A stretch of DNA of 60,749 bases, the filler included, from Rhizaria sp. SCN 62-66 (taxonomy: Eukaryota), in the NCBI GenBank assembly GCA_001724265.1. It is 2 parts of 2 records of this genome, joined end to end, with 100 filler letters (N's around TTAATTAATTAA, not from the genome) between each part and the next. Parts side by side here need not be neighbours in the genome. Positions count along the whole stretch, not along the records: positions 1 to 30,414 come from MEDY01000365.1; 1 more part is not named here. The stretch is one strand, 5' to 3'. Each line of letters starts with the position of its first letter. The stretch's first letter is position 1. Under the pieces are notes generated by a model. The model had not been told where the DNA came from. It did no database searches and worked only from the letters and a program-made list of their open reading frames with translations. Positions 570 to 57,200 of this stretch are shown piece by piece. A program made the position numbers and the translations under genes.

Positions 570-641
570 GGTCTTATAGTATAGCGGTTAGTACGATTGG
601 CTCTGATCCAATAGTCCTGAGTTCGAATCTCGGTAAGACCT
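570..641 (+). tRNA. trnQ-CTG: tRNA-Gln, anticodon CTG (603-605)
   Basis: Cloverleaf: acceptor stem GGTCTTA/TAAGACC, D arm GTATAGCGGTTAGTAC, anticodon arm ATTGG-CTCTGAT-CCAAT, T arm CTGAG-TTCGAAT-CTCGG, discriminator T, followed by an oligo-T Pol III terminator. Confidence 0.95.
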
Positions 642-9643: not shown

Positions 9644-12600
9644 TTAGGTTGTGAATCCTGAGGCTAAGAGACTGTCAACTCCGGCAATGACTGTATCAGG
9701 ATGCGTTGCTACACCAGGCGCACTGCTCACAGTTAGCCGAAACTTGCACTGTAAACACACAGACGAGGTACTGAGACTTGGACTTGCGGAGTGCAATTGA
9801 CACAGCTCGTGAGCCACGGTGATTGTGAGCAGCGACTCAGCGCTCTTCGTGCTGGATGGCAGAGTGCTTGAAATAAAGCCAGGGCAGTCTAGCGCAACGC
9901 CAGCTTTCAAGTTGCAGCTACTATCACACTGTTTGCAGTCATTATCGACGCTTGCAGCAGAATAGTTATAACTCTCATTGCTGATTTCACAACCACTCTT
10001 CACAGTTGTAACCGAGATTGCAATATGAGGACCATCAGCCACATCGACATTTGCACTCGTTGCGGTAGCAAAAGTTCTACTTGTACTTGCAGTCATGGGA
10101 GAAAAGAGAGACATCACTGATACAACAGACGCAACAGCAGCAGCGCCCTTGGCCTTTGCAGCCACGATAGCACGTGCACTTACACTCATGTTGATATCGA
10201 GATCGCTGTCGCTGTTATTATGATGAAAGTTGCTGGCACTGACACTCTTGAAAGTACTATTGAGTGACTGGGAGCAATATTGATCGTAAACGCACGACAC
10301 AACATTCAGCGAAGGGACTGGGCACTGTTGACTTGAGTGAGTCTGAACAGACTCTGAGTATTTATCGTCAGCAAGAGGCATACTAGCAAAAACATAGCTC
10401 GTGCTGTCGTAGTTATTGTTGTTGCAAACACTTACAGTTACAGTGTGAGCAACATTGTCGCGAATATGATTATTATTCTCAGCAGCAGTAGCTGTTGCTG
10501 CTTGCAGTCCGACCATCGTTGTCGCAACAGCCGCGGTCGTTACAGCGGTCACAGCAGAAACCAAGACAGCACTCAAATCGTCACTCTGTTGCGTACAGTT
10601 ACCGTTCGAGCTATTGCTACTGCTGTGACATTGTTCACGCATTGCGCGCTCAAACAGTTGAGCCACACCAGCAGTAGCGCCTTTCTCACTCCCACTGCGG
10701 CCAATCCTGTCGGAGCCGCTTGTGGCGGCGGCCAGAGCCAAGTGCGCCTTAAAGCGTAACAGCAACAAGGGAGAGAATGAGCGTGACCAAGCAATACGAC
10801 GGCGAGCAGCGCCAAGGTAGCCTTGCTGCTGCTGATTTTGGCCTAGTTGACTGGAGCCGCAACCGCTTGAGCTGCGATTGTTTGCGGTCGTATGCACGCT
10901 CGTGTTAGCATTTGATTTTAAGCCGCCGGAGAACAATGTGTTGATTAGAGATGCAAGTGTAAAGAATGGTAGATAGGAGATGAAAACAAAGTACCAAAGT
11001 GAACCGCGACTGTAAGTACCCATCATATTCATCTCACGTAGACTCTTAGCTGAGCTAGTGTAAGGCTTTGTCAGTGACTAAGAGCAGCTGCATTCACATG
11101 CGCAGCAAGGCCCCAACTGTGTCTGTGAAAGCTGCTGGGAGATGCTGTTGCATCCGGCATTATTAACCGCCGTAGCAGCATCAGCAGTACTCGCCGCTGC
11201 CATTTTATTCGCAGTTGATGATGATGGCCCTACACCTGTTGCTGTAGCAGCGGTGGTTACAGACCGCGAGAGCGGGGATGTTAGCACGTAAGCGCCAAGC
11301 CTCTTAGAATTTGCTGCAATGCGCTTCGACATGTCTGCATTATCAAACTCTGCAATGCTGCCCTTGTTTTTTAGCTGTCGCTGCTGGAGCTGTAGCGATG
11401 ACGGTGACAGAGCTGATGGTGGTGCAAGCTGAGGAATTACAGGGGAAACAGATGAGTTTGAGCTTGCTGCACTCGCTGTAGCTGATACTGGCGCCGACAC
11501 TGGCGAAATACCTGCAGAGGTTAAAGTTGAGCGAGGACTTGCAATAGCACCACGCTGCCGCAGCTCTGAGGCAGGGCTTAATACCTGGCGACGCTGTAAA
11601 TCAGACGTGTTATCTGAATCATCGTTGTGGTAGTTTGCAATCATACTATCGTCAACACTGCTCTTGCTTATGCTATCGATGCAGCTTGCAGCAATGTTAT
11701 GATGGTAGTTGTGTTGGGGCAAAGGCGTGCGTGTCAGGGCTTGCGATTGTGAAGGTAACTGCGAACAAGAGCTTGGCGACTGCACATATTCTGGGCACAC
11801 GCAACACTTTTGGCTTACTAGACATGTGTGAAAGCGGCTAACATCATTGTCATTTGCAAGATACGAGTAGTGACTGTGAGATTGACAGTGACTGTGTTCG
11901 TCATTGCAATCAACGTGTGCTGTTGCCAGTCTCGTTGAAGCTGTTGCAAGCGCTATCGGTTCAGGTGTTACGCGTAGCGCTAACGACGGGGTTTCACCTT
12001 TCCACGCAGAAGTTAAGCCGCCACCAGAGGCGTGAAAAGCAGCAGCGGCAGCCACACGGCAGCGCTGGTGCTTGTGGAGGATCCGCGTGCTGAGATTGTT
12101 GTGATCACATTGAGAACGCTCTAAGCAGGCTTGGATGTAAGTTGACGAAGCACTAAGACTGTTCTCACAATTATTATTACTGCCTAAGTTATGGTTACGA
12201 TTGCTGCCACTTGTCGCCGCTTTGTTATTGTTAACAGCAATGCTGGTGACCCTTACGTCCCGCTTAGCAGATGAGCTTAGACGCGGATACTCAAACTGCA
12301 GCTGCACGCGGAGTAGCAACGACGCAAGTACTGGAAGCGGAAGCACGCGGAGCTGGCTTAAAGTCAAGCCGCCGGCAGTCACAGATAGGCCTTTACTCTC
12401 TGTGCTGCTAGCATGTGCAGGACTTTGCGCCATACCGTCACCGTTCGCAAGAGCATGCTGAGTGGGTAATTGTGGAAGTTGCAACAGCGGAAATGAAGCT
12501 GTTGTTGAGCTTTTAATCTTGTCGCTTGCGCAAGTCGTCAAACCAGTGTTGTGAGACGTCAGCAAGGAGTGATACTTGACTTGTTCAAGAAGCTGTTCGC

Positions 12601-15600
12601 TTGAGCTGGACCATTTGTCGAGCCATGTACTAAGACCAGCGTCACTTGAATCGGTGCCAACATGCATCTTCAAAGAGCTGCGATTCTTTTTGAGCACATT
12701 ACGAGCAAAATTTTTGCCGTTGTTGTGATCGTTACAATTACCTGCGTTGGTAGTGTACTCATTGCAGTATCCAGAGCTGTTGTTTTGCTTGCTAGTGCCA
12801 GTGACGTTGCGGTAGAGTGACCGTGGAGACTTAAGCAGCTGACCAGCGCCATTCTCGCTAATTACACTCATGCTGGTAAGGTTACTCGAGCTATTTGTGT
12901 TACGCCACTCGTTCTGTTGCTCATGAATATGCACAAGCTGAGACTGCTTGTTGGTGTTGCGTGGGCTTAGAACAGTACTATTCTCATCTTCTTCATTGCT
13001 GTCGCAATCATGGCGGCTGCTGTAGCTCGAGCTCCCATCACTGCTCGCATTGCAACCTTCACGGATCCCTATGTTATTGCCATCATTTGTCGAGAGCGCT
13101 TCCAACAGTGACGCAAACACAGTTGCGTGAACAACAGAGAGAGCTGACAGTTCATGGCCAAAGATGGAATTTGCGTCCGGGCTTGCTGAAAGCGCAGTTG
13201 CGGCTGTTACCCTGAGACGTGCCAGCAAAAGCGGGTGGCAACGAAACAGCACAGCTGACCGTGACTGCAGTTGCGTCTGAGAGTGCACGCTGTTGGTTTT
13301 GTAACGAGGACCACACGCGTTAATAAGTGCAATTTCCCATAAAGGACCCTCCGCTTCAGCCATCACTTCAGCTTTTGCTTTATCGCTGGCCTTTACGGCA
13401 GCTTTAACGGCCTTAACAGCCGCTGCAGCAGCCGCAGTCGTTGATCCTGCTGTGCCTGCTATTGCTGTTGCATTGGAATTCGCGCTCGTAATCGCAGTAG
13501 CCGCCGCGGCAGAGGCGAACTTAGCGGCATTGACGGCGGCAGCAGCGGAGACAGTGAGTTGTTTCAACGAAGCAAGCGGCTTGACAGCAACAAGCGATAC
13601 AAAGGCCTGCAGCGCATGCTGTGTAGGCAACCGCAAGTAGTCACTGTTTTCGCTATTTTCATTCTCACGAGAGCAAGTTTTCGTATTGTCTGCGCTACTA
13701 ATACTAATACCGTCCTCCTCTTCTTTGTTAGACTCACAGTTGCGTCCATTAGCACCAGATCTGCCTTGCCACTGTTGCTGTTGCTCTTGGAATTGTTGCT
13801 GCTGTTGCTGCGTAAATGCAAACTGCGACAAGGACAGCGAGTAGTTGCGACTGCGTGACTGTGTGAATGGCTGTGAGCGTGACTGAGCAATGGTAGTGAC
13901 CAACGCCGCTGCGGTGGGAAATAATGCTGCTGCTGAAGTAACACGAGAAGATAAGTTTAGTTGCTTTGCTGACGACCAGAAGGTAAGCCGCATGGCACTA
14001 TAGTCACACGCGTTGTTAGTACCCGTGTTGAAACTAGAACCGCGTGAACGGCATAAGGAAAACCTTGCTGATGGTTTGCTGATTGTAACATCAGCATTAA
14101 CAGCATAGCTACTTATATCACCAGCAAGAATTGCACTTGCGTCAGGAATGCCTGCAGACCTCGATCTATTATTTCTCACAGTCTTAGAGCTCTTATTCTT
14201 TAGAGCAGCCTGATTGCTGCTGGCACCATCTAAGGGCTGCTTCGACAGGTCTAAGGGTGCCTCCGCGAGCGGCCCCGCACGCCAGTCGCTCCACACGGCC
14301 TCCGCGACCGCGGCCCGAAGCTCGTCTAGAGTGACCTCGCGCGGCAGCAGCAGCAGCAGCGTGTGCGGCGAACACTGGCAGCGCGGGGACAGTGCGCAGC
14401 AGCAGGGCGGCAGCCAGGCCGGTAGTGGCACTGGCAACGCTGTGGGGGCTGTAACGGTCACCGTGGCTTTCGTTGTAGCTGCGGCAACATCAGAGAGATT
14501 CGAAGTGGCTTTAGTAGGACTGCTGCGCGCGCAAGCCTGACTGTGAGCACATGAATGACTGTGAATGCTGCAGTGTTGAGCCGCAGAGCCGTGGCCTGGC
14601 TAGCAAGCCAGGCTTAAAGAGGCGTTGAACATGCTACGTTGTGCTTGCGGTGTAGAGGTCAACACGTTCACTTGCGGGGCAGCGCTGGTGTAGGTGTGGC
14701 ATCCGCCCACATCAGTATACGTGTAGTTGTTGGCATTTGAGACACGGGCATGGTGGGTGCCCGTCTCTGGCGCCAGCTGCGACTGCAGCTGCTGCTGGTG
14801 TTGTAGTTGGAGCGACTGCCAATGAGACGGAAAGGAGACTGAAATCGGGGTTGTGTCCGAAGTTAAGACGCCTGGCGTGGCTTGGGGAGACGCAGATAGA
14901 GACACACTGCTTGCCGCTGCGCCATTGTTGACGACAGCAGCAACGGGTTTGAATGCTGTGGTTGCAGTTTGAGGTTGCTGTCCGCAAGGCTGCAGCGTTG
15001 CGCTGTCAGTTTCCTCTCCAGCACTTGTTGAAATCGTAGTCATCTTGGGCTCTGGTGCTGCTGCTGTTACTTTGGCAATCAGATTAGTTTCACTACTGCC
15101 TTTTGCGGTTGTGGCTGCTAATGCCAACTTTGCAGCCTTTGGCTGGACTGGCAGCAGTGGTGGTTTTACATTAGCAGCGCACACTTTGGCCTCAAGCTGA
15201 GGCTCCTCGTCAATGCCTTGAAGTAAGATGCGTGTTGCGCCGCTTGCCGTGAGCCTCAGCATTACTTTGCGACCACCAGGCGCCGGCAACGGAGCGGGAC
15301 AGGCGTTACCAGCGCATATAACATTGGTGCTGCCACTTGTGTTAGCGCTCGATATTGTCGCGTTGTTGCAATAATCGAGTGAGTCAATTGACATAAAGGA
15401 GTCGATGCTGTTGATTGACGGGAAAAACAACGAAACAGGAGACGGAGGCTCAGCCTCAGCCTCAGCTTTAGCCCCAGCATCACAGTCCTTCTGAATCAAC
15501 TCATCATTGTTCGCGCTGATGCCACTCGCATGCCCGTGTTCTTCACGCTCACAGTTGCCGCCGTGACCGATATTTGCGTCAGAGCTGTTTGATTGTGAGC

Positions 15601-16912
15601 GTGAGCGCGAGCACGTCCGCGATTGCCAATGCTGTGATTGGAGCTGCGACGGTGATCCTCGATGCGACAGCGACGTCGGTGAGAGCACTGCAACTACTTC
15701 GGCCACACATCTCTCTTCGTCACCAACAACAAGGCTGCTACTGTTATTGGCTTCGTTGATTGCAGCAGAGGCAATAGGACCTGTCCGTACTCCAGCGTTG
15801 CCACTCTGAGCCATGTCACTTGTCTCATTAACGTCAGTATCATCAGTATATGTACCGCCAGAGACCATGTAAGTGCCAACAATGTCGGTTTCCAGCTGGG
15901 GGGCTGCTGCTGCCATCCGCATTGCGCCGCGCACGCTCAGATTAGCAGCGGACCGACTTACAGTTGGAGTGCTTACACAGTAGGTACTTACATGAGCACT
16001 CGCTTCTGTCGTGTTAGTTTCGTTATGCTGTTGCAGAGTTTGCTGCTGCTGTTGATGCTTGACTTTGCTGCTACTTTTTGCTGCGCGGCTTGTCGGCGCT
16101 AGCGCCCTGGCAGGCGTAAGGATGTCTGATGTCAGTACTAGTGACGCCGCTGCAACAGCGTTCATAAGCATCGCGTGTCGACGCTGCTGCGACACTGCGC
16201 TCAGCAACGCAGCCGAGCCCACGCTCACATCGCCGCAGTTAGAAGAAGTCCTTGCGCTGCCGTTGTTTTGCGAGTATGTTCTGAGAGCGCTGTGTGTCAG
16301 CTTAGTTAGCGCAATCAAACTTTCATCTTTCTCGGAAACGTTAGAGCTTAAGCCAGTGGCTGCCAAGGCCAAGCCGACAGTCACCGCTGTTACTTGTGTT
16401 GCAACTGATGCTACCGTTGTTGCCGTTGTAGCTGCTGTTTGTGTGACAAAAAGCGCTGTTTCAGCTGCCGCAGTGACTGCAGCATCGACTGAGTCAAACT
16501 CAACGCCGCTGCATGCATTCACGCCGCTGTTGCCAAGGTCCACCAAGTCTGCGCGGTCCCGCTCGGATGCCTGACTCGCGCAGTTGCACGTGCGCGCAGC
16601 GTACGCGCACATGGCTACCACGCCCGTTACTACGGCCCTTAGAGTCCTTGCGACGGCCATGAGCAGCAGAGCACACAGCAACAGCGCCAGCGAGAGCGGC
16701 AGCAGCACGGCGTAGCCGATCACTGAGAGCAAAAGCGCGGGGACCGGGTGCGGCGCCGCGGCCGCAGTTGCGGCAGCGGCGGCGGCGACGGCCGCGGGCG
16801 AGGAGAGGACATAGAGGTGGACGGCATTACTGGCAGTGCTATGACTGGCACTGGTATCGCCGTCTGAGTTGTGAGGGTTAAGTGAGGGCAATGGGGACAA
16901 TTGTGCGCTCAT
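9644..16912 (-). CDS. ~2420 aa protein with an N-terminal TM segment and dispersed, degenerate WS/DGAT-like motifs; reads through in-frame TAGs at 14602-14600 and 11080-11078
   Basis: Three consecutive ORFs (777, 1127 and 462 aa) share one frame, separated only by single TAG codons with open coding-like sequence after each; final stop TAA. PLWEIALI...AVLFRCHP and IAISVTT...LKAGVALD resemble WS/DGAT motifs (family call tentative). Confidence 0.7.
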
Positions 16913-17624
16913 TTTCCACGCAAAGTTGCGCAAAAAAGTGTTTAACGCAGCTAAGACCGAATACCTTAGCGCCAGTCAAGTGGTTTTGCGACGAGCAGAT
17001 TCTGATGTGTTATGCGTTTAAGTCGATGCAAGCCTTGATAAACCAGCAAAAGGGTTGAAAACTCCTTGTTTGCTGTATAGAACAAGTAAATAAGTTGAAT
17101 CAAAGAGATACAAATTTGATCAATCGATGAGTTATCTTAAGATATCAAGACGGAAAATAGAGTTCTAAGTGTTGCTGCGCAGCAATAAACAAGTGCAAAC
17201 GCTATTTCGCATAGAAGCCGCACATGGTCAGCACCAGAAACTTAAAAACTACATTAAAACAAAATTATGCCACAAAAGCTGACATTGCACCGCTTAATTT
17301 TCAGTCAAACAAATATTTGTGCTTAGTTTCGAGATGAATGCATTTGGAAGATCCGTTGCTTTGCCGTCACACAGTGAACACGACATCCTTGTCAGATACT
17401 CACAGATACCGAAGTTTCCGTGGAATATAATTAAGGTATTTGATTTAAAAAAATATTGAATTAATAATACTAAGTCAATACTGCTGTTAACGGATGGTGG
17501 ACGGAGATTATGTCATTACCAATCTCGACGCTCGATCGAGCCTGCAATTTGGCGCCTGCGGCCCTGACCACATTCGGAGGTATACACGACGGTAGCAGCA
17601 GCCTTTAGAGGTATCAACGTGGTG

Positions 17625-18440
17625 ATGAACGAAAAAATAATTCAACACTACTTTGACATATTCCCTGATGAAGTGTCTTTGATCAACCGTGTCATCCAGG
17701 CCCGCGTCTTTGGCAAGTACGTCCCACCATGCACCTGAATCCGCTCTCGTCTCTTCTCCGTTTGTGCTTGTCTGCTCTCATGATTGCAGAATTGCTTTTG
17801 CTTATAACCCGTCTTTGTGCAGAATTACAAGCATTGACCCGCTGGCCAAGACGGCCGTGTTATCGTACAACAACGCGGCCTTGCTCGTGAACATCGCGCT
17901 GATGCCGCAGAGCACCGGCGCCAACAACGCCAGCGCCGGCGGCGGCAGCGCCTTCAGCAGTGCCGTGCTCGCACAGGCCGACGTCGAGCACCAGCAGGCC
18001 CCGCTCGTGGTTGACAGTCTCTATTTCCTACACGGCACGCTTGAGCCAGCCATTCCTGGGGTACGTCTATCTCGTTTGCGCAACAAAACACATGTCACAA
18101 ACACTCTTGCGAACAGCACTAAAGGAGTCATATCTCGTCAGTATAAAAGAATTTGATTATAATCCCTCGTCTACATGTATTTTTGTATATGATATTTGCT
18201 AAAACAAAAACAATACGATTTATGTGTTAAATCGTTGTTCTTTGCCCCCCGCAGCGATCCGAGGCCGTCTTCTCCCCGTTGCTCTGCCGCCGCGCAGACG
18301 GCGTGCACGCGGGCGCGCACGCCGCAGCCATCGCGGCGAAGCGCGCCATGCTCTGGGCTGCGGGTGCTGTGCTGCCCATCCCCGCGCCGGCCGCCGGAGC
18401 CCATGCCCAGCCCCAGCAATAGCAGCAGCAGCAGCTCTAA
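17625..18440 (+). CDS. TEN1: CST complex subunit TEN1-like OB-fold protein; exons 17625-17716, 17823-18060, 18255-18440; in-frame TAG at 18420-18422 inside a poly-Gln tract
   Basis: Spliced product DIFPDEV...ARVFGKITSIDP...LLVNIAL...DSLYFLHGTLE...LCRRADGV...AIAAKR parallels the TEN1 pattern (LRTFGRL, GSLYxxxGEL, xEGM/DG). Both introns are GTACGT...GCAG and preserve frame. Confidence 0.75.
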
Positions 18441-18622
18441 TACATATACACGTCATCTTGGCCACCTTGACTCATCTCAACATCGCAATAATGAGCAATC
18501 AAAAGTCTAGAAAGAACCTTAACTTAAAAACGACGTAGTTAGTACACATTGCACTCACTTGTTGTCTGCCTTAGCGCTTAGACGTGATCGACAACTCTCT
18601 CAATCTCACAGTGGCCGCTGCT

Positions 18623-19868
18623 TCAGGCGTCTGAGGGCCCGTAGTTGCCTCCGCCGATGCCGCGGCCCATGAGCTCAACGCCGCTCGCGCCGCCGTTGAC
18701 CGCGCCCGGGCCGCCACCGAAGCCGTTGTCGCCGTCGAGCCCCAGCCCGCCGAGCCCGCCGTCGTCGCCGTTGCCGTCGAGTAGCAGGTCGTCGTAGTCG
18801 TCGTCTGCGTAGTCGAGCATCCACGCCTGCTCCTGCGCGCCCGCCTCGAGCAGCGCTTGCGAGGACGAGACGGCAGCGGCCGCGGCGGCCTGCTGCGCTG
18901 CGTAGAGCGCCTTCTGCACCTTAAGCGCCTCGATCTGCTTCTCCAGTTGCACGGACTGGAGCTGGTAGTAGCTGCCCAGAAAGGCGACGAGGAAGAAGAG
19001 GTTGATGAGGAAGACGAAGAGCGCCGAGACGCCGAACTCGGTGCGTAGCGGCGACAGCGAGGCCAGCATGCCGCCGAAGACGTCGTCGCGCGTCAGGTAG
19101 AGCTTGCCGTCGCACATCGAGTCGAAGATGCGCTTGACGCGCTCGGTGAAGGACACGTCCTCCTTGAGGTGGACGAACTGCGGTAGCTCGCTCATGTACG
19201 TCAGGAACTGGTCGTAGGTGACGCCGTGGATCTTCTGCGGGTCCTCGCTGGGCTTGAGCGAGGCCGAGGTGTAGATGCCGTCGCTGTGAGAGCGGATGTA
19301 GCCCGTGGCGAGCGAGGCGTCCGACAGCGTCATGCACGCGAGCGTGAAGAAGAGGACGATGATGACGAAGGGCACGATGCCGACGAGGCAGATGCGCAGG
19401 CGCGGGGTCGTGCGCAGCGAGAGGTAGGAACGCTGCGTGTGCTGGCGCAGGCCGAGAATGCAGCAGCCGATAATGAGCGAAAAGGCCAGGCAGATGCCAC
19501 AAAATACGGCGAGCACGATCGCGAGACTGTCGTCAGTCGTGAACAACGCAGCAAACAGCGAGAGAGCAGCATAGAAAAGCAGTGAGTGGAGATGGTATTT
19601 GGCGTCGCACAAGAAAAGTGACAGTCTAAGGAAATAAAAAATGAATATATATGAAAGATGATTCCGGTATAAGGCTGTATCTTGTCGTTTTGACGCACTC
19701 TGTGTCACCGACAAGCCAGTTGACGGCGCCCCAGTTGAGGAACATGAAGACGGCGGAGGTGATAAGGCCGGCGTTGGCGACCCACACGCAAACGATGAGG
19801 GCGACGACCCAGTAGTTCACCGGGGTTGCCTTGGGACTCCACTCGTGCTGTGGCTCGGACACAGCCAT
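18623..19868 (-). CDS. Four-TM membrane protein with tetraspanin-like topology and an acidic/Gly-rich tail; exons 19868-19699, 19526-18623
   Basis: Three hydrophobic segments, a ~90 aa loop, then a fourth TM (FGVSALFVFLINLFFLVAFLGSYY). Intron GTGCGT...GACAG keeps frame; ends in TGA. Confidence 0.7.
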
Positions 19869-21429: not shown

Positions 21430-21728
21430 TTAGATCGCAGCCATCTGGACCTCGCTGCTGGCGTGGTCGGGGCCGGTCGCTGTGGCCTCCTGGTGGCGCG
21501 CCCCGCGCGCGTCGCTGCCGCTGCCCTCGCGCGGGCTGGCGGGGGGCGAGGCGGCGACCTTGCCGCTCTTGCTGCCGCCCTTGCCCCCGAAGCACAGCAG
21601 CGACTTGAGGTAGCACACAATGAACGCGATGATGATCAGCACCACGCAGACGGGGACGACGACGGCGACGATGATCGTCGTCGTGTCGTCGCCGCCGCCG
21701 CTCTTGCCGTCACCGCCGTCACCGCCGT

Positions 21729-21759
<31 letters not shown>

Positions 21760-24700
21760 GCCGTCGGTACTGTAGGAGCCGGTGCCGACCGACGCGGGCA
21801 GCTCGTCGCCGTCCTCGGCGTTGGCGTCGCTCACGGTCACACCGGCCGCGGCGTTGACGCTGGTCGCGCCCGCGGCTGCGAGCGCGGCGCCGTTGTTGGC
21901 GCTGGTGTCGGTCGTGAGCGTGGTGATGCCTTCGTAGAGCGAGGACATGCTGCCGCCCGTCGCCGTCGCCGCCAGCGTGCTGAAGCGCGCCGCGAGCGCG
22001 GCCGACAGCGACGCCGACAGCGAAGGTAGGCGCGCGAGCTCATTGGGGCTGGCCGTGTCCGTGGGCAGACGCCAAGACTCGGAGCACGCGGCATCGTTGG
22101 TCACGTCCAGCTCGAACTTGAACTGCTTGTACTTGGCCGAGAGCTCGACGAGGCGCGCGGCCTGGACGCGGACGGCACTGTCGCTGTCTCCATTGGGGCC
22201 GGACATGACGGTGGCAATGCTAGCGCCAGCCTTGGCGACCCAGGTGGCAAAATTGGCCTTGAGCGCGGCGTTGAGCGTCGAGCTGGCCGAGACCCAGAGC
22301 GTGTCTGCCTTGCCCATGAAGGCGACGAGGCCCAGCGTCACGACGCGGCACTTGCAGTCGCTGTCGGCGGCGAAGCCCGGCTCGCAACCGCAGCTGCCGC
22401 AGTCAGCGCTCGCCGTGCCCAGGTTGTGGCACGTCCGGGTGCAGGTCTGGCAGGTGTCGCCGGTGTAGGCGTCAGGACACACGCAGCCGCTGCTGCACTT
22501 TGCCTGGTTGTCGCTGCCGAAGTAGCCCGTCTTGTAGCCGCCGTTGGCGCACATCGAGGTCAAGCCCGGGCACGTCGCCTCGGTTGCGCGTTCGCACTGG
22601 TCGCCGGTGAAGTAGTCGACGTTGCTGCTGTCGTCATCTTCGTCGTCGTCGTCGTCCTCATCCGGGTCCGGGACGCGGCACACGCAGGTGGCGCGCGAAG
22701 TCTCGGCGTCGACGGTGCACTCGGCCGTCGTAGCAGGCTTGCACCGCTTCGTGTCGCATGGCGTGATGTCGCACGCGGCGCCAGACCAATCGCCCAAGCA
22801 GTCGCAGACGCCTGTGGACTCGTTGCACGTGCCATTGTCGCCGCAGAGTCCAGCGCAGGCGGCGTCGACGGTGACAGCCGCGTCGGAGGTGGCCGTGAAC
22901 TCGGCGGTGAGCACGCCCTTGGCCTTGTACGACTGGCCGGCAAGCAGCACCGACGCGGCGGGGCGCGGGAAGGTGAGCAAGTAGGTCGTGCCAAACATGT
23001 CGACCAGGGTGTCAGTGTTGGGGGCGTAGGCGGTCGCGAGCACGATCTCGGTGGCCGCGGCGGCGGTCGAGACGAGCGAGATCTTGAGCTTGGGCTGCGG
23101 CGACGCAGCGGGCTGCGAGACGAGGAACTCATAATTGTCGTTGGTAAAGGTCAGCTCGATGGTGACCGAGTCCGCCGTGACCACAGGGGCGGAGAGGACA
23201 AATTCGGAGGAGGAGTCGCACTAGGTGCCCACGTAGTATGGCGAACACTCGCACACCCCGTCGACATCATCCTACAAACACGGCCGAGAAAGCGAAAAAA
23301 GACAGAAACGGACAAAAGTGAGTGAAGATAATCGATCAACCTTACGAATAACGTATTTCAATAATTGTCCAATTTTGAAGAGATATTGTAAAGATTTGTG
23401 TCTCGAAGATGATGTGAGAACGCACCTGCCAGCGGCCCAGGCCGTCGTACTTGCCCGAGAGCTTGCACGAGCCATGGTCGCACCTCGGCGTGCCATCATC
23501 ACTATATTTGATCCAGTCCTCGCACTCAGTGTACGACGGCAGGGGCGCCTCGATGCCAGCGCAGAGGGCAGGGACGACGACATCGCCATCGCTCGACATG
23601 CAGACGTAGTCCTATTAGTATCAGCAAAAAAAAACACCATCAAAAAAACAAAAACAATATCAAACAAAGTCAGGAAGAGCATAAGTGAAAGAAACCAGTT
23701 TCCGTGCATCGTTCGGTCGAATATATAATATTGGTATTTTTCAATATATGTGCTAATAATTATCAGCAGCGACGTACCTTATACGAAGACTTGCGGCACC
23801 CCTTAACGGATGAAGGGCAGGTGGCAAAGTCGTCCACCTCCCACTTGTAGGTCACTGTAGTGTTGCAGGCAGGCAGGTAGCAGGGGAACGTGAGCGTGGT
23901 GTTGGCTGCGGCGCCGCAGAGCGTGCTGGACACGATGTTCTTGCCGTGGTCCATGCACACGGCCTCGGTTACAATGCCCTCGATCTCGTTCTCGGGGTCG
24001 GGCTGGCACGTGTAAGTCTCGCCGTCCTTCTTGCACTTGCTGTCGATGCGCGCGAAGATGCCACATGACGTCTTCACAGTCGTGCAGTTGGCCGAGAGCG
24101 CGGGAGCCGTGCCGCCGCACTGCGCCGTGGGCACCTGGTGCCCCGCAAACATGCAACGCGCCACGCGCGTCGGGCTCACGGGGCGCTCGATGCAGCCCGT
24201 GGTGGGGCACTGTTCGGCGAAACCGCCCAGGCCGTCGTTGTCGGAGCAGGGTACGGCCGTGGACGCCGCGGCGCCCGTGGCGTGGCACATCCACGTCGCG
24301 GCCGCGCAGCCGGCCTCGCTGGTACACGTGTGCACGAGCTCCGGCACGGGCGCGTAGGCCGCGCAGGGCTGCAGCAGCGCGGCGGCGCGGCCGTGCGACT
24401 GAGTGAAGCCCGCGAAGGTGTAGTTAACGGTGTTGGAGACTGCGCGCATGACGCAGCGCGCGGCGCGCGTCTTGAGCGCGCTGCCGCAGGCGTCGGTGCA
24501 CGTGAGCTGCGCGAGGTCGACGGCCGACTCGTAGCACGAGAGCCACGTGACAGCGCCGTCGTCGAGCGAGCCGTCGTCGGGTGCCAGCGCACACTGCCAG
24601 AGGTACTGGTCGCAGTGGTACGACGCGCAGTCGCGGACCGTCGTGGGCGGATTGGCCACGCCGCCGCACTTGCTGGCGTAGACGTCGGTCGACTTGATCA

Positions 24701-26971
24701 GCGCCAGCGTCGTGTCGACGCAGTACGTGGTGCGGTTTGAAGTGCCGAAGCCGCAGGTGTTCTGAGAGCACACTGGGTTCCACGAGCTCGAGTCGGTGCA
24801 TTCGATCGGCGCGAATGAGGCGGCCGCACCCGAGCTCTGCATGACGACGGAGTTGGGGTAAGACAGACACTTGTAGCCGCACGTGCTCGAGGGCTTGCAA
24901 GTGCCGGCGTTGGCGGGCTTGGTGACGAAGTTAGCGGGACACAGTGTCGCGGCGTCGATCTCGGCTCCCGTGGCGGCGCTGACGCAGGCGAGCGTTGCGG
25001 CCGGAATCGCGCTCTCGACCTCGGTCTCGTTGCAGCCCGCGGGGCAGACCAGGAAGTCGTCAGAGCAGGCGGTGAAGGCCCCCGCGGGGGTGCGGCATTG
25101 CCAGCTGCCGCAGCCCGAGGTGACTGGGACGAGCGCGGGCAGCGCTGGGAGCGCGACCGAGCACGTACGCTTGGTGGCGGTGCTGAGCGAGACGTAGATG
25201 GGCGCCACAGACACGTCGGCGCACTACTGGCTGGCGCCGTAGGTCGGCATGCCGCAGTTGTTGGCTGGAGGAAAGCCCGTGCTGCACGGGTAGTAATCGC
25301 CTTCGCTGTTGAGGCAGGTGTACTCGCTGATGGCGATTGCGCTTTCGCTGAGGCTGTAGTAGCCGTTAGTCGTGATGCTGTTGACAGTAAAGGCGGCGAG
25401 CGCAGTGATGGCAATGCCGTCAAAACCTTCAACTTCGCCAAAAGACCGCACGGCGCGGAGCGAGAGCACTTTCGCGGCAACCGCGGGCCGGAAGGACAGG
25501 ATGTAGTAGAGATCATTAGGATCTTCAACAGAATTTTCAATCACTCCGGAAATATCGCACTTCGTGATGTCACTCAAGGAGGAGCCCGGCAGCATATTGA
25601 CAAACTCCGTCTTGATCGCGTTGCACAGCTTGATTTCCGGGGCGTCCCCCATGCCAATCACCTTGAAGAGCCACAAGGCCGTGGCGACGGGGTCCGTGAA
25701 GGGTTGCAGCACGGCCGGCGCGGTCGGAATCATGCTCCGCCTGCTCACGGCCGTGTTCGCGTTACTCACGCGCGCGTTCGACTGCAGCAGCAGCGACACC
25801 GCACCCGGGTCAGCGGCGTCGAAGTCTTGCGTCCGCAGCGTGAAGCCGGTGCACACGAGCGAGATCTGCTTGTCCGGGGTCACGTTCGTGGAGCTGGCGA
25901 AGTCGTCGAAGTAAGAGCGAGAAGCCGAGTCCGCGATGTAGGCCGTGTACATGCCGGGATACCCCGAGTCGATCGTGAGCGGCACGAGCGAGACGGTCGA
26001 CTCGGAGGGCCAGTGGGTCTCGCGGCCGCCGCGAATGTAGCAGGTGGGCACGTCGGTGAGGTAGTCGGGGTACGAAAATGAGATCTTGAAGCCCTCCATA
26101 CTGACGTCCGCCGCGGTGGAGTCGTAGAGGACGCGGGCGACGAAGCTGGCGGTGTCGCTCGCGGTGTCGAACACCAGCACCGCTGGCGCGTTGGTGAAGA
26201 GCACGGAGGGGTTGTTATAAAGGACCTCGCCCACGAAGGCCGCCGTCGTGGGCGCGCGGAGCGCAACGCGCACGTTGGCGGCGAGGTCGACCGAGTTCTG
26301 GGCCACGGTGATGGCCATGTAGGCGTCCGGCTTGACATCGCTCGCCACGGGGGGTGTGACGGGGATGTACGCTTGCTGTAGCAAGTTAATCACGTCAGTT
26401 GGACGAGGGAGAAACAAAAACGAGTTGTTTTGGGTGAGCGAGGAAGTGAGTACACAAGAATGCACAGGAGGTAGATTGAAAGAGGTCGCAATAAAAGTCG
26501 CCGAATTGAGCTGAGTTGAGTTGAGTTGAGATGAGTTGAACGTACGAAGGACTGGGAGCTGAGCATGGTCGCATTGAAGGTGACGACCAGAGAGGAAGAA
26601 TCGTAGGTGTAAAGGACAGTCGAGACGGTCCCGTCATTGAATGAGACGTAAACCGATTCCTAAGTGGCCTCCACAGTGTAGAGGTGCCCCATGCGGACCT
26701 TGAACTGGAGCGGAACGTCGTTGGCGAAGACGTCAGCGCTGCCGGGGCCCGAGGTGCGGTTCAGGTGGAGCCTGATGAACGCAAGCGAGGGCGAGGCCGC
26801 GGAAGTGTAGGGGAAGACACCGGTGAAGCTGACGAGGAGACTCTCCGCAAAGGCCGACTTGCCGAGGTTGTTGGGGAGGTCCGCGGCAGAGACGAGAAAG
26901 ATGGAGCAAAGCATGAAGAGGAAGACCGACTGCACCAGAAGCAGTGTCGGGCGACACCGCAGCGAAAGCAT
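21430..26971 (-). CDS. Type I cell-surface protein with signal peptide, Cys-rich TSP1-like repeats, EGF-like repeats, one TM and a short tail; exons 26971-26546, 26375-23778, 23611-23426, 23271-21430; in-frame TAGs at 26662, 25226 and 23223
   Basis: Signal peptide MLSLRCRPTLLLVQSVFLFMLCSIFLVSA; TSP1-like motifs (CSQNTCGFGTSNRTTYC, CTDACGSALKTRAARC); EGF-like motifs (CDCLGDWSGAAC, CVCPDAYTGDTC); TM IIVAVVVPVCVVLIIIAFIVCYL. Three phase-0 GT-AG introns; ends in TAA. Confidence 0.85.
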
Positions 26972-30414: not shown

Positions 30415-30514
30415 NNNNNNNNNNNNNNNNNNNNNNNNNNNNNNNNNNNNNNNNNNNNTTAATTAATTAANNNNNNNNNNNNNNNNNNNNNNNNNNNNNN
30501 NNNNNNNNNNNNNN
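30415..30514. other. Artificial contig joiner: 44 N + TTAATTAATTAA + 44 N
   Basis: Symmetric 100-nt N block with a six-frame stop linker. The gene on the right is truncated at it and does not continue on the left. Confidence 0.95.
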
Positions 30515-31617
30515 CGCGCGAGCGCCGCCTCGCGCTCGGCAGCGCGGGCAAGCGCGGCGTCGCGCGCGGCCACGGCGCCGCGCAGCGCGGTGGCCTGCTC
30601 GGCCGCGGCGGCGCGTGTCTCGGCTAGCGTGCGCTCCAGCTCGAGCACGCGCGCGCGCAGCGCGGCGGCCTGCGCGAGCGCGGCCGCGGACGCGGCGGCA
30701 GCGGCGGCGCGCGAAGGCGCCAGCAGCCGCGACGACGCCAAGTCCGACAGCCGCGCCGCGGTGGCCGCCACGGGGCCAGAGTCCGCGGCGGCGCCGGCGT
30801 GCGTCTCACCGCCGCCAGAGCCAGTGATGACGCCGAGACTCGCGATGTCGTTCTCGTCGTCGTCATCGTCACCAGCGCCGTGGCGAACAGTGTTGGGTGC
30901 AAGCCGGCCGCCGCGCTGCGGTGAGAAGCCGCGCTAAGGCGAAAAGGCCTGCGACTGCGCCTTCCGCAGCTTGCCTGGGGCGGGCGAAGCCGCAGCAGAA
31001 ACAGCAGCAGTTGCGTGGCCGTGCGTGCGCGCGAAAGCGGAGGCAGGCAGCGGGTCCGGCGCAAGGCGCGAAAGACGGAGGTCGTCGCGCACACTCTCCG
31101 CGGTGCCCATGGCGGCCGCCGCGGTGCGCTGCTCGGCCCACGCGTGCACCTGCCTGAGAGTGCTCACCGCAGTCTCTGCCGCATCCGCGCCCGCGCCCGC
31201 GGCGGCGGTCGCGGCATCAGCTTCAGCGGCGGCCAACGCTGCGCGCGAGGCGGCGGACGCGGTCGGGGACGACGCCGCTGCAGCTGCTGAGGCAGAGGCA
31301 GCGGCTGCTGCTGCGGCGGCGGCACCGGCGGCGCGAGGAGACCACGAGTCGCCGTTGGAGCTGGTCGTGGGAGTCATGGGCGCGAGCGCGCGCGTTGACG
31401 TCGCAGTCGATGCGCCGCGGCTCGGGTGCGGGCCAAACATCGCGGTGCGCGCGCGGCGGTCGCGCTCGGCCTCGGTGACCTCGCCCACGGCCTGCGACAT
31501 GGCGACGCTGATGCGGGCCAGCGAGGCACGTTGCTGGGCGCGCAGGCTCTGCGCCGCGCGGGACAAGTCCTGCGCCAGCGCAACCGCGTCGGAGCGCTGA
31601 GGGGGGATCTCGTCCAT
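30515..31617 (-). CDS. Ala-rich coiled-coil protein, 3'-truncated by the gap; in-frame TAG at 30936-30934
   Basis: The 248 aa and 102 aa ORFs are in one frame, separated by a single TAG within FSP*RGFSPQRG. Heptad-like segment LRARVLELERTLAE. Start codon uncertain. Confidence 0.7.
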
Positions 31618-32097
31618 TGTGTGCGCGCCCCGGAGGGCTGAGCTGAAAGGGAACCCGCCTGCTGGCGAGACAGGATCCAAGTGCTGGGAAATACTCTGGT
31701 CCCAGTCAAACGAGCAAGATAGTTAGCAGTGTCAGGCGCACGCTAGACACAACCTATGCAAAACAATTAAAAGAGAAAAAATTTGATAACTTAGAAATTC
31801 ATTTAGTAACTTTGCATTCACTCTGGACGATTACGATGTTCACTTGGTTTGAATTTTAATTGATCGTTTCTCGACACACACCCCAACGGGTCGCCACAAT
31901 CGCATGACAAGCGCAGAGAGGCGAAACGATAGAATAAGTTGAAGCAGTGCCAAGAAAAATGAATTTTCACACAAGTCTGTATTATGTTCCATAAGCCATG
32001 TCGAAGTACGACCTCGCATGTTTTACCAGTCCAAATGTGTCTTATACAAGTCGCATATGTGGCCAGTAAAATGGATTCACGATAACACAATGCGCGC

Positions 32098-51200: not shown

Positions 51201-54200
51201 CGGCAGCAGCATTCGCAGCGGCGGCAGTCGCGCTCGCCTTCGCGGGAACCGTTACAACGCCGGCACTGCCGAACTCAGAGGCGCTTAACGCCAGGGCAGC
51301 TGCCGCAGCCGCGGCGGCCGCGGCCGCGTCCACCTCTCTTTCCGGAAGCAGCATGTCAACGTAGTCGCTCTCAGCGCCGCCAGCGGCCAAAAACAATGCG
51401 CGGATCCCGGCCGCTGTCGCACTCGGTTGCGGCGGGGCTAGTACGGATACAGACGCGGACGAAGCGCCAGGCAGCGGTGCAGCGAGGAGGCCGGCGCGCG
51501 CCGACGCCACAGCCTGATCGACTGTCGAGCGCGCTGGCTCACGCGTTGACTGCGCCGCGGTCTCTGCTGCGGCCGCGAGGGTGCGCAGCCCACGGCGCGC
51601 AGCACGTGCCCTGCGGGCAACAATTGTCACAAGGGCCCGCAGCAGAGGCTGTGGCATGTTGCGCGCGTCTGGCAACGAGCCTGCGAGCGAGAAAATGGCC
51701 GCGTCATCGAGCGAGTCCAGCATACCGAGCGGCAGATTAAGCGAGCCACCCGCGCCGACACTAGCGCCCATAAACCCATGTCCGACGCGCTTTGCCGTCG
51801 GCGATACCGTACCCACAGGAGTGGCTGAAGACGACAGAGGGTGAGAGCTGTTTGAACGCATGGACCCGAGCGAGCCGGTGGTGTCGTCGTCCTCGTTCTC
51901 ATCCAACCCCGGCAGTCCATCGCTGCCGCGACCGCGACCGTCCGGGTCCTCGCTGTCAGTCGAGTCGCCATCGCCAAAGCCACTGTCGCCGTCCTGGCGC
52001 GGGGACGCCTCGCCCCAGAACCCAGAGTCCGCACCGAGTCCTGTGGCCGCAGCAGCCGCAGTGGCTGCGCGGCGCCGGGCTGTGGCCGCAGCAGCGGCGT
52101 CAGCGTCGACGATTGCGGCCTCCTCGTCGCCCTCGGACGGCGTGGTGAGCATCGCGGGGCCACTGAGGCCGACGTTCGAGTCGTTACTGGCGAGAGAGCT
52201 CGGGCCAGAGCTCGACGCAATCGGCTGCGGGAGGCGGGGCGCCGCACGCCAGGGACCGCGTGAAAACGTGGTGGCCGTGGGCGTGGTCGCCAAGCGCGGG
52301 GAAGCAGCTGCCCAGCCGCCAGTGCCAACCGTGAGCTATGTGGCGCGCGGTGAGAAACCGCCTGGGGCGGGCGCGCGCGGGCTCGCAATAAAAGAAGACG
52401 GCGAGAGCTGCGGCGAAGGAAATCCGTCGGGCGAGCCGGGGGCTGTCAAACCTGACGTCGTGTTTGTCAGCGCAGTAGCCACAGTTACCGCCGCGAGCAG
52501 CGCCGCCTGCAACCCGCCCGCGGTGGGAAGGAACGGCGTCGCCGCAGTCGGGGACGTAAGCCGCAGAGGTCCGGACGAGGTGGCCACGCGAGGAGAAAGC
52601 ATTGCAACGGCGGCCGCGGCGGGGCGCGGGAGCGCAGCGAAGACCTCCGGACTACCCACCATCACTTGTCTCGCGGTACCCGTGGTTGCCACGTCGGCGG
52701 CGACTTCGCGGACCAGCTCGGCGGCGTGGCGCCACTGCGCCTGGATCAGCGGGTTGCGCGGCTTAAGCGGACTGGTCGAGCCTGTGCCGGCGGCACCTGC
52801 GCTCGTGGCAGGACGCGAACCGGCGGGGAGTGTGCCGCGCTCCAGGCCTGCGGCCACTGTCGCAGCGACGGACGCCGCCGCCGCGGCCGCGCGCGGCGGA
52901 AGAGCGTCATGGCGCGCGCCGCCATTAGCGGTCGCAATGCGGCCACGTGCCTCGGCAAGCGCACTGGGGCCATAATGGCGACAGAAGTGTGTGCCGAATG
53001 CAACGCCGCAGCGCGCGCAATAGTGAATGCCCGGTAAAAGCAACGCTGCGCGGCGCACGCGCGCGCACACAAGCACCGCCGACAGGAATGTGAGACCGCC
53101 ACCTTCGTCAAGGTCGGGCGCGCCGGACGCCGCGAGACCGGTGCTTGTGCCTGACTGAGCGGCACCTGCAGACGCGGCGCCTGTCGAAGGGGCTCCAACA
53201 GCGGCGGCGGGTGTTGCGGCCCCCCAGCCGCGCAGTCCGCCGCGGGGGTGGCGCGCAAGACCAGCCTCAGCGAGCACTTCAGACTCCTCGGAGCCCGCAA
53301 GTGGCAGCGCGGGGGCGCCCGCGGCGTTGGCGACGGCGCGGAGCGTGGCGTCCGCGGCGTCCGCGGCGACGTAGGCGGGCGCGACTGTAGGCGCGACGGG
53401 AAACGGCGCGAGCGAGGTGGCCAGCGTGAGCACGAGCGCGCGAGCGAGGGCCGGCGCTGGCGTGGTCACGGCGAACACGACGGCGCCGCCCGACGCAGCG
53501 GCGGGCAGCGGCGCCGCGATGCGCGCCACAACGGCCGCGGCAGCCAGCGCGCGCGCGGCGGAAACGCCGGCGCCGGGAGCGGGCAGTGACGCGAACGATG
53601 CCGAGGCAGAGCGTGTCGGGGCAGGCGTGAACGACGACACTGCACTGTGCGCACGCGGAGCAGCGACTGCGGCTGCAACAGATGTCTGCGTGGTCGACGC
53701 AGCTGAGGCGGCGGCAAGAGCGGCGTCAGCGGCGGCGACTGCGGCCGGTGAAGGCACGGCGCAGAGCAGCGCCCACTGTCCGACAGCGGGGGCAGAGGCC
53801 AGCGCGGCGGACGCGGACGATGTGGCGAGCGCGGTGGCTGAGGTCGAGGCCGCGGCTGATGAGAACGCGTACGGCGACGGTGGCAACAAAAGCGCCGAGT
53901 AGGGATCCGCGTTTGCGGCAGCAGCCAGTGCAGCCTCAGAAGCGGCGGCTGCTACCTCTGCGGCGGCGGCAGTGGCAGCGGTAGCGGCAGCAGCGGCCGC
54001 AGCTGCGGCAGTTGCGGAAACAAGCGGCACAGCGTCGGCGATCACCGCAGGGACAAGACTCTTACTGGCAGCACTTGCCGCCGCCGTGACAGCAGCGCCG
54101 GCAGCGGCGGCCGCGGCTGCAGGCGTAGGGGCTGCAGAGGCAGCGCCCTTACCGGCGCCGGACTTCCGCTTGCTGCCATCGGCTGCGGCAGTCACGGCTG

Positions 54201-57200
54201 CGGCCGCGGACACAGATGGCACGACGGCGCCGCTAAAGGCCGACACAGCGGCGCTCGTGCGCGCGGCAGTCCATTTGCGCCGGAGCGCGGCGCCGCGGCG
54301 CAGCCGGGACATCGCGGCGGGCGGCAGCAGCGCGGCCAACTTCGCGGCCGGCACAAACAGCACCGCGGTCGTCGTCGCCGCGATCGCGGACACAGGCGTC
54401 GCTGTTGCGGCGGCAGACTCTGCGGAAGCCGCGGCAAAAGCAGCCATCGTCGCGGCAGACTGACCGGCGTTCTGCGCGGGGTCGCCGCCCGACGCGCCAG
54501 CGGACGCGCCGGAGGCCGTGGCAGAGCCTGTGGAAGAGGACGACGACGCAGTCGCCGCAGCGACCGCGGAGGTGGCCGAGGGCGCCGTGGCCTGGTACAG
54601 CAGCGACTGTTCGCCGAAAAAGCTCTGCGGGGGCAGCGTCGCCACCAAAACCTGCGTCTCTGCATCGGCGCCAATCGCTGTCGACGCCGCCGTTGCAGCC
54701 GCCGCGGCGGCCGCCGCTGCAGCGGTGTCAGCAGCGAGCGCACGCTGGTCGCTCTCATGGGCCAGTCGGTCCGCATAGCGCGCCTCAGCGGCCGAGCGCA
54801 AATCGGCGTAAGGAGCGGCTGCGGTGGCCTCGCCCGCAGTCGCCTGTAGCATCATTGCGGCTGAAGACGTCGCGGCCGCCGCGGCCGCGGAGGGCGACGC
54901 GCGCGCATCTTGCTGCAGCATCACAGCGCCTGAAACAACAAAGTACAGGCCTAGCGCAGGCGTACCGCGCTGCAGCAACGTGTGTCCGGCAGAAAAGCGG
55001 AGAGGCTCGGCCGCGTACGCGAGCTGCGCGCACACAGTCGCGGGACAGCCGCGCAGAGAGGGCAGGTAGCGGAAGAAAGCGTAGCGGTGCCACGACTCAA
55101 GCGCGAAGGCAGGCGCGCAGTAGCGGTTCACGGCGGCCGTGAACGCCGCGCGCGGCACCACAAGCACCTGTGCGAGCGGAGTCGCGGCCGCGAGCGTGAC
55201 GGGGTGCGCGGAGGGCGGCATGTCGCCCGCGTAGTCGCCCTCGCCGAGTAGCGCCAGATTCAGCAGCGAGCCGGTGGGCACGCTATCGCCGTCCTCTTTA
55301 TCGGAGCCGGCGCCAGAGTCCGCTGCGCCGTCAGCCGCCCCGCGGCCGCGGCTCTTAGAGCCGCCTGAGTCCGAGGACACTGGGACATCTTCGTTGGGAG
55401 CCGCAAGCGCCGCGACAGCGCCGGTGAGCACGAGATATAAGTTGTCAGCAGCGGTACCCTGCTCGCAGATGACCTGGTTCTTAAAGTAAAGCCGCGACGT
55501 CGCTGCAGACACCACGAGGTGTGCGGCCTGCGGCGGCAATTGCGAGAGCAGCAGTAGCAGCGCCGCGGGGGTCCGGTGGCCCGCAGCGGCGCCCACAGAC
55601 GCGGCCGCCGCAGCGCCGCCGCCCGCTGCGGAGGCGAGAAACGGCAGCAGACGCGGTGTCAGCGACGGCAACGGCAACGGCGGCGGCGGGGGCAGCAGCA
55701 CAAGCGCCTTGTCCGCGGCGGGCGCAAGCGCGGGCGGTACCGGCGACGCCGCGAGCGCCAGCGCGCGCGCGAGGGCCTCGCCGGCGCGCGCAGCCATCTC
55801 GACCGGAGTGAAAGCCGTGATTGTGAGCGCAACGCCGCCCACCGTAACCTGCGCTGCCGACCCGCGAGCGCGACCCAGGCTTTCTGGCGACGCGAACGAC
55901 GACGGCGGCATGAGCGCGGCGGGCGCCAAGATCGCGGCCTCAGCGGCGCTGAGAGGGGCGAGCACAGCGCGGCGCGCGGCGGCCGCGCGGGCACGCGCTC
56001 GTGCGCGGGTGGAACGCATGGGTGAGTTCTGAGTCTGCGGCAAGTGCAGGTGGAGTCCGCGCGGGCCGGAAAGCGCGGCGTCAGACTGAGAGTTCGGCGC
56101 CAATTCGCGGCCTGCGCTGTTCTGAGACGTGAGGGCGAGCGCGCGGAGTGCAAGCGCCGCGGCAACTGTCGGCAGCCCGCGCGCGGCGCGCGTGACGCCG
56201 CGGTGCAACACTAGGTCCGTAGCCGTGAGCGCCTGCGCGCGTGTGCGGCGCTAGGGTGGTGTCTCGAGACTGCTGAACGTCGCGTGCGCGTCTTTGAGCA
56301 GCAGCAGCGTCGCGAGCGCCCAAGCGGGCAGCGCGGCCGGCGCTGCGGCGGCGGCTACAATGGGCGCCAGGAATAGGCACGGCAAGCGCAGCGGGGGCGC
56401 CAGCGCGGACGTGGCTGCAGCAACAAGCGCGCCCGATGTGACCTCGTCAGCACCGAGCGGAAGGCGCGGGGTGTCGCCCTCGCTTTCGACGCGCATCTTG
56501 AACAGCCCTGTGGCGCGTTCCTGGCGCGCCTCGAGCCCCAGCGCCGCCAGCGCCACGGCCGCGGAGGACGTTGCGCTGTCGCGCACGACGTCGGAGTCGG
56601 CGTCTTCTGCGGCGGCCGCTGCGGCCGGAGTCGCGGCCGTGGTGGCAGCCGCGAGCACGGCGTTGACAAGCGCGGTCTTGGACATGACGAGGTACTCGCA
56701 GGTAGTCAGTGCGCGCAGGTAGCGCCGCCGCGGTGCGGGGAACGCGCTAATCTCGTCGCAGCCGCCGCTCGCCGCCGCGCCCGCGATGTCTCCGCCGCTG
56801 GTGGGCATAAGAGCGGGCGCGACGGTGACGAACGGGAAAAGATCGTTGCGCACGTACACGGAGCCTGGCCCTAAGTGGCACACTGGCACCAGCGAGTCGT
56901 CGCCGTCGTCGTCATCATCATCCGCGCCCGCGCCGGCGTCGTCGCCCGCCTCGTTGTCGTCATCACCGGTGGTGCCGTCACGCGGGCTGCCACTGAGGCG
57001 GTCGTTTCCGCGCGAGCCATCGGCAGCGGCGCCGTCGCTCGTGGTCGCGGTGCGGCTGCCGGCGGCGCTAGCGCCGTCACTGGCGCGGCCCGCTGCCGCG
57101 CGCGCGCGCGGCTCTGCGCTGCGCCGTTGTTGTGTAAAGCCGAAGCCCTTGGCAGGCGCGCCACAGAGCGGTTTGCGCGTCCCGGCGGGCGCAAAGACGG

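Follow-up and report, generated by a model that had tools for sequence, protein, structure and literature searches.

The nuclear genetic code rarely changes, and the reassignment of UAG alone, with UAA kept as a stop codon, was unknown until 2017 and is still limited to a handful of cases. Codes in which both UAA and UAG have become glutamine codons are far commoner than those affecting UAG alone. In peritrich ciliates and in Blastocrithidia, UAR is read as glutamate. The first organism described with UAG as glutamine and with UAA and UGA as stops was Iotanema spirale (Metamonada, Fornicata), for which Panek et al. (2017, PMC5304391) argue that a tRNA-Gln(CUA) reads UAG but not UAA. In two phyllopharyngean ciliates, Hartmannula sinica and Trochilia petrani, UAG is reported as putatively glutamine, UAA being the preferred stop (McGowan et al. 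2024, PMC11687900). The code with UAR as glutamine (NCBI table 6) is listed for many ciliates, dasycladalean and other ulvophyte algae, hexamitin diplomonads, oxymonads and Amoeboaphelidium (PMC5304391). A leucine meaning of UAG is given for the rhizarian exLh and for uncultivated phyllopharyngean ciliates (PMC5304391; PMC11687900). Among eukaryotes, glutamine is described as by far the commonest meaning of a reassigned UAG (PMC5304391). Natural read-through of UAG by the near-cognate tRNA-Gln(CUG), with insertion of glutamine, is reported for eukaryotes with the standard code (PMC13192750).

We studied one 60.7-kb stretch of DNA, further referred to as the window, from which all evidence on the code presented here comes. 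The organism is an uncultured eukaryote of bioreactor and wastewater metagenomes. The window is eukaryotic in structure, with G+C-rich exons between A+T-rich introns and spacers. It is present in DNA runs from three studies (bioreactor, wastewater and activated sludge) and partly present in a poly(A) metatranscriptome; runs X1–X4 were compared with it as contigs. Our conclusion, which we hold to be probable, is that UAG is a sense codon in this organism, with glutamine as its most likely meaning, and that UAA and UGA are retained as terminators. Since the combination of UAG as glutamine with UAA as stop is already known elsewhere, the present case is a further instance of it.

As a non-circular test, the stop triplets of all six frames were listed together with how far the frame stays free of stops in either direction. 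For five triplets this stretch reaches 300 codons or more both ways, and all of them are TAGs on the minus strand (52338, 56253, 14602, 11080 and 25226), with no TAA or TGA among them. TAG makes up 723 of the 3,181 stop triplets in the window; by our own arithmetic, the chance of five out of five being TAG is about 6 in 10,000. The longest open reading frame (ORF) grows from 2,362 to 4,633 codons when TAG is treated as sense. Treating TAA in the same way gives no gain, and with TGA as sense it reaches 2,377 codons only.

Within 21 coding segments, which together comprise 14,677 codons, the in-frame stop triplets are nine TAG, no TAA and no TGA; this count is descriptive, as the segments were picked as free of TAA and TGA, and the independent test is the scan of stop-free flanks. 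The nine sites are spread over five genes of the window. Set against 505 CAG and CAA codons in the same segments, they amount to 1.8% of Gln-type codons. If TAA related to TAG as CAA does to CAG, approximately 2.6 in-frame TAAs would be expected (own arithmetic) and none is seen, which, the TAGs being so few, is weak evidence alone. A coding-score test with 50-codon flanks was too weak to tell the frames apart; stop-free flanks and longer segments were used instead. By codon-usage score, the same frame stays on top on both sides of the TAGs. At least five genes have TAG in frame within their coding sequence, with the same frame continuing as coding beyond it. Under the standard code, the small gene considered below would end at its TAG, and the four other genes would be truncated long before their ends.

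The longest of these frames is a giant ORF on the minus strand (45250–59148, 13.9 kb), which comprises 4,632 codons if its TAGs are translated. This unbroken frame has two internal TAGs: the one at 56251..56253 is flanked by 959 and 1,304 stop-free codons, and the one at 52336..52338 by 1,304 and 2,361. The product has a cyclic-nucleotide-binding match (E 2.9e-15) near residue 1,221. Otherwise this ORF is mainly of low complexity, rich in alanine and serine. A second giant ORF of 2,443 codons (9644–16975, minus strand) also contains two TAGs, at 14600..14602 (791 and 1,173 stop-free codons on the two sides) and at 11078..11080 (1,173 and 477), the latter being CAG in strain X4. In both giant ORFs the surroundings of the TAGs are G+C-rich and carry no splice signals. 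Elsewhere in the window, a 1,638-codon ORF stops at the TAA at 8147, and a Q- and N-rich open frame (8236–9255) begins 90 bases further on the same strand.

It may be asked whether the genes are decaying and these TAGs have arisen by nonsense mutation, whether they are errors of sequencing or assembly, or whether they betray introns that were overlooked. Two of the TAG-bearing genes are indeed fast-evolving and of low complexity, and in ORF 9644–16975 as many as 15 of the 24 listed differences between the window and strain X4 alter the residue. Nevertheless, we consider this explanation highly improbable, given that all nine events are TAG, with no TAA or TGA, that beyond the TAG hundreds to thousands of codons follow with the frame still open, and that TAGs are seen again in independent samples. 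Moreover, the TAGs lie in G+C-rich coding sequence without splice signals, whereas the predicted introns are A+T-rich and start with GTACGT or GTGCGT donors. Tiny in-frame introns placed at the TAGs were rejected on the same two grounds, the missing splice signals and the G+C-rich surroundings.

The third gene encodes a cysteine-rich membrane protein with EGF motifs, further called the surface protein. It occupies 21430..26971 on the minus strand and consists of four exons (26971–26546, 26375–23778, 23611–23426 and 23271–21433) followed by a TAA at 21432–21430. Three TAGs lie in frame: in exon 1 at 26660..26662, in exon 2 at 25224..25226 between stretches of 469 and 486 stop-free codons, and in exon 4 at 23221..23223, where the triplet falls between a conserved G and a conserved C of an EGF-like motif. 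The search against 1.84 billion representative proteins yielded six matches. Two of them, P0125 (query residues 82–469) and P0124 (475–956), are the organism's own protein, with 100% identity, split at TAG 25226. The four remaining matches are relatives with 30–35% identity, and three of these, P0126 (1,060 aa), P0127 (1,475 aa) and P0129 (1,057 aa), are single proteins that span the exons on either side of the TAGs and are colinear with the gene. The split of the surface protein in public sets (23766–26633, minus strand) is a case of standard-code gene calling cutting genes.

When the three TAGs of this gene are compared with the homologues, one aligns well, on a variable column, and the other two fall outside the alignment. 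The aligned one is TAG 23223, where the window has GVCECSPYYVGT[TAG]CDS opposite GDCVCADNWFGA[D]CAN in P0126 and GRCVCSNGYVGP[T]CAL in P0127; the homologue residues in this column are D, T and D. About 600 residues, including the membrane span, are encoded downstream of it. To judge from the aligned relatives, TAG 23223 must be passed by translation.

The same triplets were found in other samples: TAG 23223 is unchanged in contigs of run X3, and TAGs 25226 and 26662 are unchanged in contigs of run X4. Being shared across samples, the TAGs are not assembly errors of a single one. Contig X5 from the RNA library (23186–23504) keeps TAG 23223 and runs through the neighbouring intron unspliced; since it covers the intron, it represents either unspliced RNA or DNA. 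Editing of UAG in the RNA was also considered and is unsupported, the sole RNA-library contig keeping the TAG but being unspliced.

The fourth gene is an ORF on the minus strand (30463–31722) with TAG at 30934..30936. The TAG lies in a tandem hexapeptide, FSP[TAG]RG followed by FSP[CAG]RG, encoded by TTT TCG CCT TAG CGC GGC and TTC TCA CCG CAG CGC GGC, respectively. TAG stands opposite CAG, and the other three differences are synonymous changes at third positions. The codon-usage score of this ORF is +70.3 upstream of the TAG and +48.5 downstream of it. Two runs of 44 N each, at 30415–30458 and 30471–30514 and separated by 12 bases, lie at the 3' end of the ORF and were taken as an assembly gap.

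The fifth gene is small and lies on the plus strand. Its last codons, read directly from the sequence at 18408–18440, are CAG CCC CAG CAA TAG CAG CAG CAG CAG CTC TAA, exactly the string given letter for letter in an earlier note on this DNA, with TAG at 18420–18422 and TAA at 18438–18440. The TAG lies near the 3' end of the gene within seven Gln-type codons (CAG CAA TAG CAG CAG CAG CAG). The TAA is likely the true terminator, and G+C falls directly 3' of it: the G+C fraction is 0.67 at 18400–18429 and at most 0.37 beyond the TAA.

The structure of this gene, as predicted from DNA alone, comprises three exons. Exon 1 (17625..17716) would begin with the ATG at 17625 and is followed by intron 1 (17717–17822) with the donor GTACGT at 17717 and the acceptor AG at 17821–17822. 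Exon 2 (17823..18060) is followed by intron 2 (18061–18254), whose donor at 18061 is again GTACGT, and exon 3 (18255..18440) contains the TAG and terminates with the TAA. The frame of exon 3 that contains the TAG is fixed by the predicted splice sites, and this frame ranks best by codon-usage score in all three exons, with +44.0 in exon 2 (versus −23.5 and −30.8 in the other frames) and +10.7 in exon 3 (versus −13.6 and −26.7). Among the listed alignments of X1–X4 contigs no splice joint of this gene was seen, and the listed pieces of run X3 end at 18402 and restart at 18495. Run X4 differs from the window by a single position over 17922–18681. Over the whole window, the five predicted intron donors (17717, 18061, 26545, 23777 and 23425) are GTACGT in four cases and GTGCGT in one, and the predicted introns are A+T-rich and 106–194 bases long.

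TEN1 is the small OB-fold subunit of the CST telomere complex, and the earlier note had assigned this name to the small gene. The name is unsupported by Pfam, homologue, Atlas and solved-structure searches, all of which used single exons instead of the spliced protein and are weak tests. No Pfam match was obtained for any of the exons searched separately with E up to 10, no match was found in the homologue search with exon 2, and a single-exon query had no relative among solved structures. In the protein Atlas, a single-exon query retrieved weak bacterial look-alikes only, the best at 0.81. It is best described as a small gene without an assigned family.

Runs of at least four Gln codons occur nine times in the coding frames of the window, and only the run at 18420 includes a stop triplet. 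Thus, counted over the window, TAG is found in one of the nine runs and TAA in none. A six-frame scan for poly-Q was swamped by non-coding frames, and the counts in coding frames were used instead. As a single TAG in one such run is weak alone, the weight of the argument comes from the eight other in-frame TAGs of the window. Taken by itself, TAG 18420 might shorten the protein by a tail that it can do without, and so be tolerated, since the part of the protein beyond it is five residues long and conserved nowhere; this was offered earlier as a fallback and is unlikely given the other TAG sites.

Fourteen gene ends were placed in the window: six are TAA, eight are TGA and none is TAG. At most of them G+C falls directly beyond the stop. 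Antisense frames aside, no TAG in the window closes a coding run ahead of a drop in G+C. Two of the ends can be compared with known families. The ZC3H15-like gene ends with ...GAVPE followed by TAA, its relatives ending with ...IPE, ...LPE or ...VPDE, and the match to FUN14 reaches the last profile position two residues ahead of TGA. In this small sample from the window, genes close with TAA and TGA and never with TAG. The suggestion that TAA acts as a stop, made originally for the small gene, now extends to six of the fourteen gene ends, one of them at a C-terminus shared with homologues, with no TAA in frame.

A different view of the same data is that the code is ambiguous at TAG, or that TAG is a weak or context-dependent stop which ribosomes pass when a near-cognate tRNA, such as tRNA-Gln(CUG), reads it, and that it may still end some genes. 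TAG 18420, just five codons ahead of the TAA, could then truly end the small gene, the TAA serving as a back-up stop. A pyrimidine 3' of a stop codon is a leaky context. The base after the in-frame TAGs is C in five cases, T in three and G in one, with no A, so that a pyrimidine follows eight of the nine; the base after the terminal TAA and TGA is G in six cases, A in five, T in two and C in one, i.e. a purine in 11 of 14 (Fisher p = 0.0028 for the contrast). This bias may simply mirror Gln codons, because a pyrimidine follows 64% of CAG codons, and relative to that level eight of nine is not unusual (p = 0.10). The rarity of TAG fits a weak stop as well. However, efficient read-through would be needed at every TAG, that is, twice in each of the 4,632- and 2,443-codon ORFs and three times in the surface protein. 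Read-through is usually minor and occurs at gene ends, and it is not a route to 4,600-residue proteins with internal UAGs. A weak stop is also at odds with the absence of TAG from the 14 gene ends and with the in-frame triplets being exclusively TAG, never TGA or TAA. We regard it as distinctly unlikely.

Provided that TAG is a sense codon, glutamine is its very probable meaning and glutamate is the main alternative. The earlier note had proposed TAG as a synonymous Gln codon; of this, the sense reading stands on the nine in-frame TAGs, and glutamine is favoured rather than proven. Several observations point to it. TAG 18420 is embedded in a run of CAG and CAA; the tandem copies at 30936 differ by TAG versus CAG with all remaining differences synonymous; and at 11080 the window has TAG where strain X4 has CAG. 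The predominance of glutamine among eukaryotic meanings of UAG (PMC5304391) agrees with them.

The possibility that TAG is sense but codes for another amino acid, with glutamate as the likeliest candidate and leucine as another, seems fairly unlikely in view of these four points, and yet some of the data lean towards it. At 11564–11566 (minus strand) the window has GAG (Glu) and strain X4 has TAG, in the same X4 contig that has CAG at 11080. If this GAG/TAG difference is taken as synonymous, it would favour glutamate over glutamine; since ORF 9644–16975 evolves fast, a change from Glu to Gln there would be unremarkable. The residues D, T and D opposite TAG 23223 are likewise nearer to glutamate than to glutamine. 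Finally, neither the window nor the scan of metagenome contigs provided a tRNA that would decide the matter.

The window contains only a tRNA-Gln with the anticodon CUG (570..641, plus strand; Rfam 63.8 bits), which has a normal 5-bp anticodon stem and lies in an A+T-rich spacer. It is a single base away from the anticodon CUA, which would read UAG. A tRNA with the anticodon CUA is absent from the window, and so is the eRF1 gene. Metagenome contigs, scanned with one IUPAC pattern, gave no matches to a twin of this tRNA-Gln with a CTA or TTA anticodon, which rules out near-identical twins in that collection only.

If UAG is a sense codon, TAG 18420 would be translated and the small gene would stop six codons later, at TAA 18438. 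We infer that a dedicated tRNA-Gln(CUA) would read UAG and not UAA. By analogy with known cases, it probably arose from a copy of a tRNA-Gln(CUG) such as the one encoded at 570–641. An eRF1 with weakened recognition of UAG would be expected as well, in line with the argument of Panek et al. for Iotanema (PMC5304391).

For the position of the organism, the ZC3H15-like protein was used. Its best named matches are from the oomycetes Aphanomyces, Lagenidium and Bremia (52–54% identity), and nearer relatives from metagenomes have 61–77% identity. The tree of this protein was built from 48 rows taken from the best hits, using 177 residues of this single marker, with midpoint rooting and SH-aLRT support. 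In it, the window, L001 and P0004 form a group (support 100), which is nested in a clade of 14 rows (96) that is sister to five oomycetes (95). These data suggest that the organism is near oomycetes and probably a stramenopile, a lead from one marker. Atlas and SNF8 searches were uninformative on taxonomy. Among metagenome contigs, related loci were found on five short contigs, of which the closest, L001, has 76% identity. It contains an intronless ZC3H15 orthologue that ends with TAA and has no TAG, and is therefore silent on the genetic code. Prokaryote genome contigs were also searched for mis-binned eukaryotic contigs and none was found.

In a full-text literature search, no variant nuclear code came up for stramenopiles or for genomes of wastewater eukaryotes. 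We put forward, tentatively, as a possibility deserving attention, that a free-living eukaryote from wastewater reactors, standing next to oomycetes on the side of the stramenopiles, has turned UAG and no other stop codon into a glutamine codon, in a change separate from those of ciliates, metamonads and rhizarians, and that this change is at an early stage. An early stage would fit UAG being less than 2% of Gln codons and standing mostly before pyrimidines. Were this so, that part of the tree would gain its first variant nuclear code, and genomic DNA from the public runs could yield the suppressor tRNA and eRF1. Every independent case shows how a stop codon gets captured, and with its few UAGs and possible context bias this one may represent an early stage of capture. 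In practice, standard-code gene callers cut the proteins of this organism at TAG, and eukaryotic bins from wastewater need a check of the code.

Compared with the described systems, the window has something in common with each. It encodes a tRNA-Gln(CUG) (570–641), the tRNA responsible for natural read-through of UAG in the account of standard-code eukaryotes (PMC13192750). With the UAG = Leu codes it shares the uncoupling of UAG from UAA; leucine itself has no sign in its favour, with no TTG/TAG difference and no leucine context at the TAGs. The UAR = Gln codes share the reading of UAG as glutamine, there reported to be by a suppressor tRNA-Gln (PMC5304391), but in them UAA is glutamine too, whereas in the window TAA ends six of 14 genes and is never in frame. 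As in the reports on Hartmannula and Trochilia (PMC11687900), only UAG would be reassigned to glutamine, UAA stays a stop, and the case was found by mining of genome data. Unlike a ciliate macronuclear genome, the window has giant G+C-rich genes, introns of 100–200 bases and a marker nearest to oomycetes.

The closest parallel is Iotanema. As described by Panek et al. (2017, PMC5304391), there too UAG alone is reassigned; it is found in frame in many genes and ends none, this role being left to UAA and UGA. The prediction for Iotanema is a tRNA-Gln(CUA) that descends from tRNA-Gln(CUG), as proposed here. The two cases differ in scale and in the proof of the amino acid: 204 in-frame UAGs in 126 genes are reported for Iotanema against nine in about 14,700 codons here, and glutamine was demonstrated there statistically at conserved columns (PMC5304391), whereas here it is the favoured reading. 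The main stop of Iotanema is UAA (104 of 119; PMC5304391), compared with eight TGA and six TAA in the window. The organism of the window is no fornicate but an intron-bearing eukaryote, with G+C-rich exons and with one conserved marker beside oomycetes. The window matches the Iotanema-type code (formally NCBI table 15) on three testable features, namely UAG in frame, no UAG terminator, and UAA and UGA as stops.
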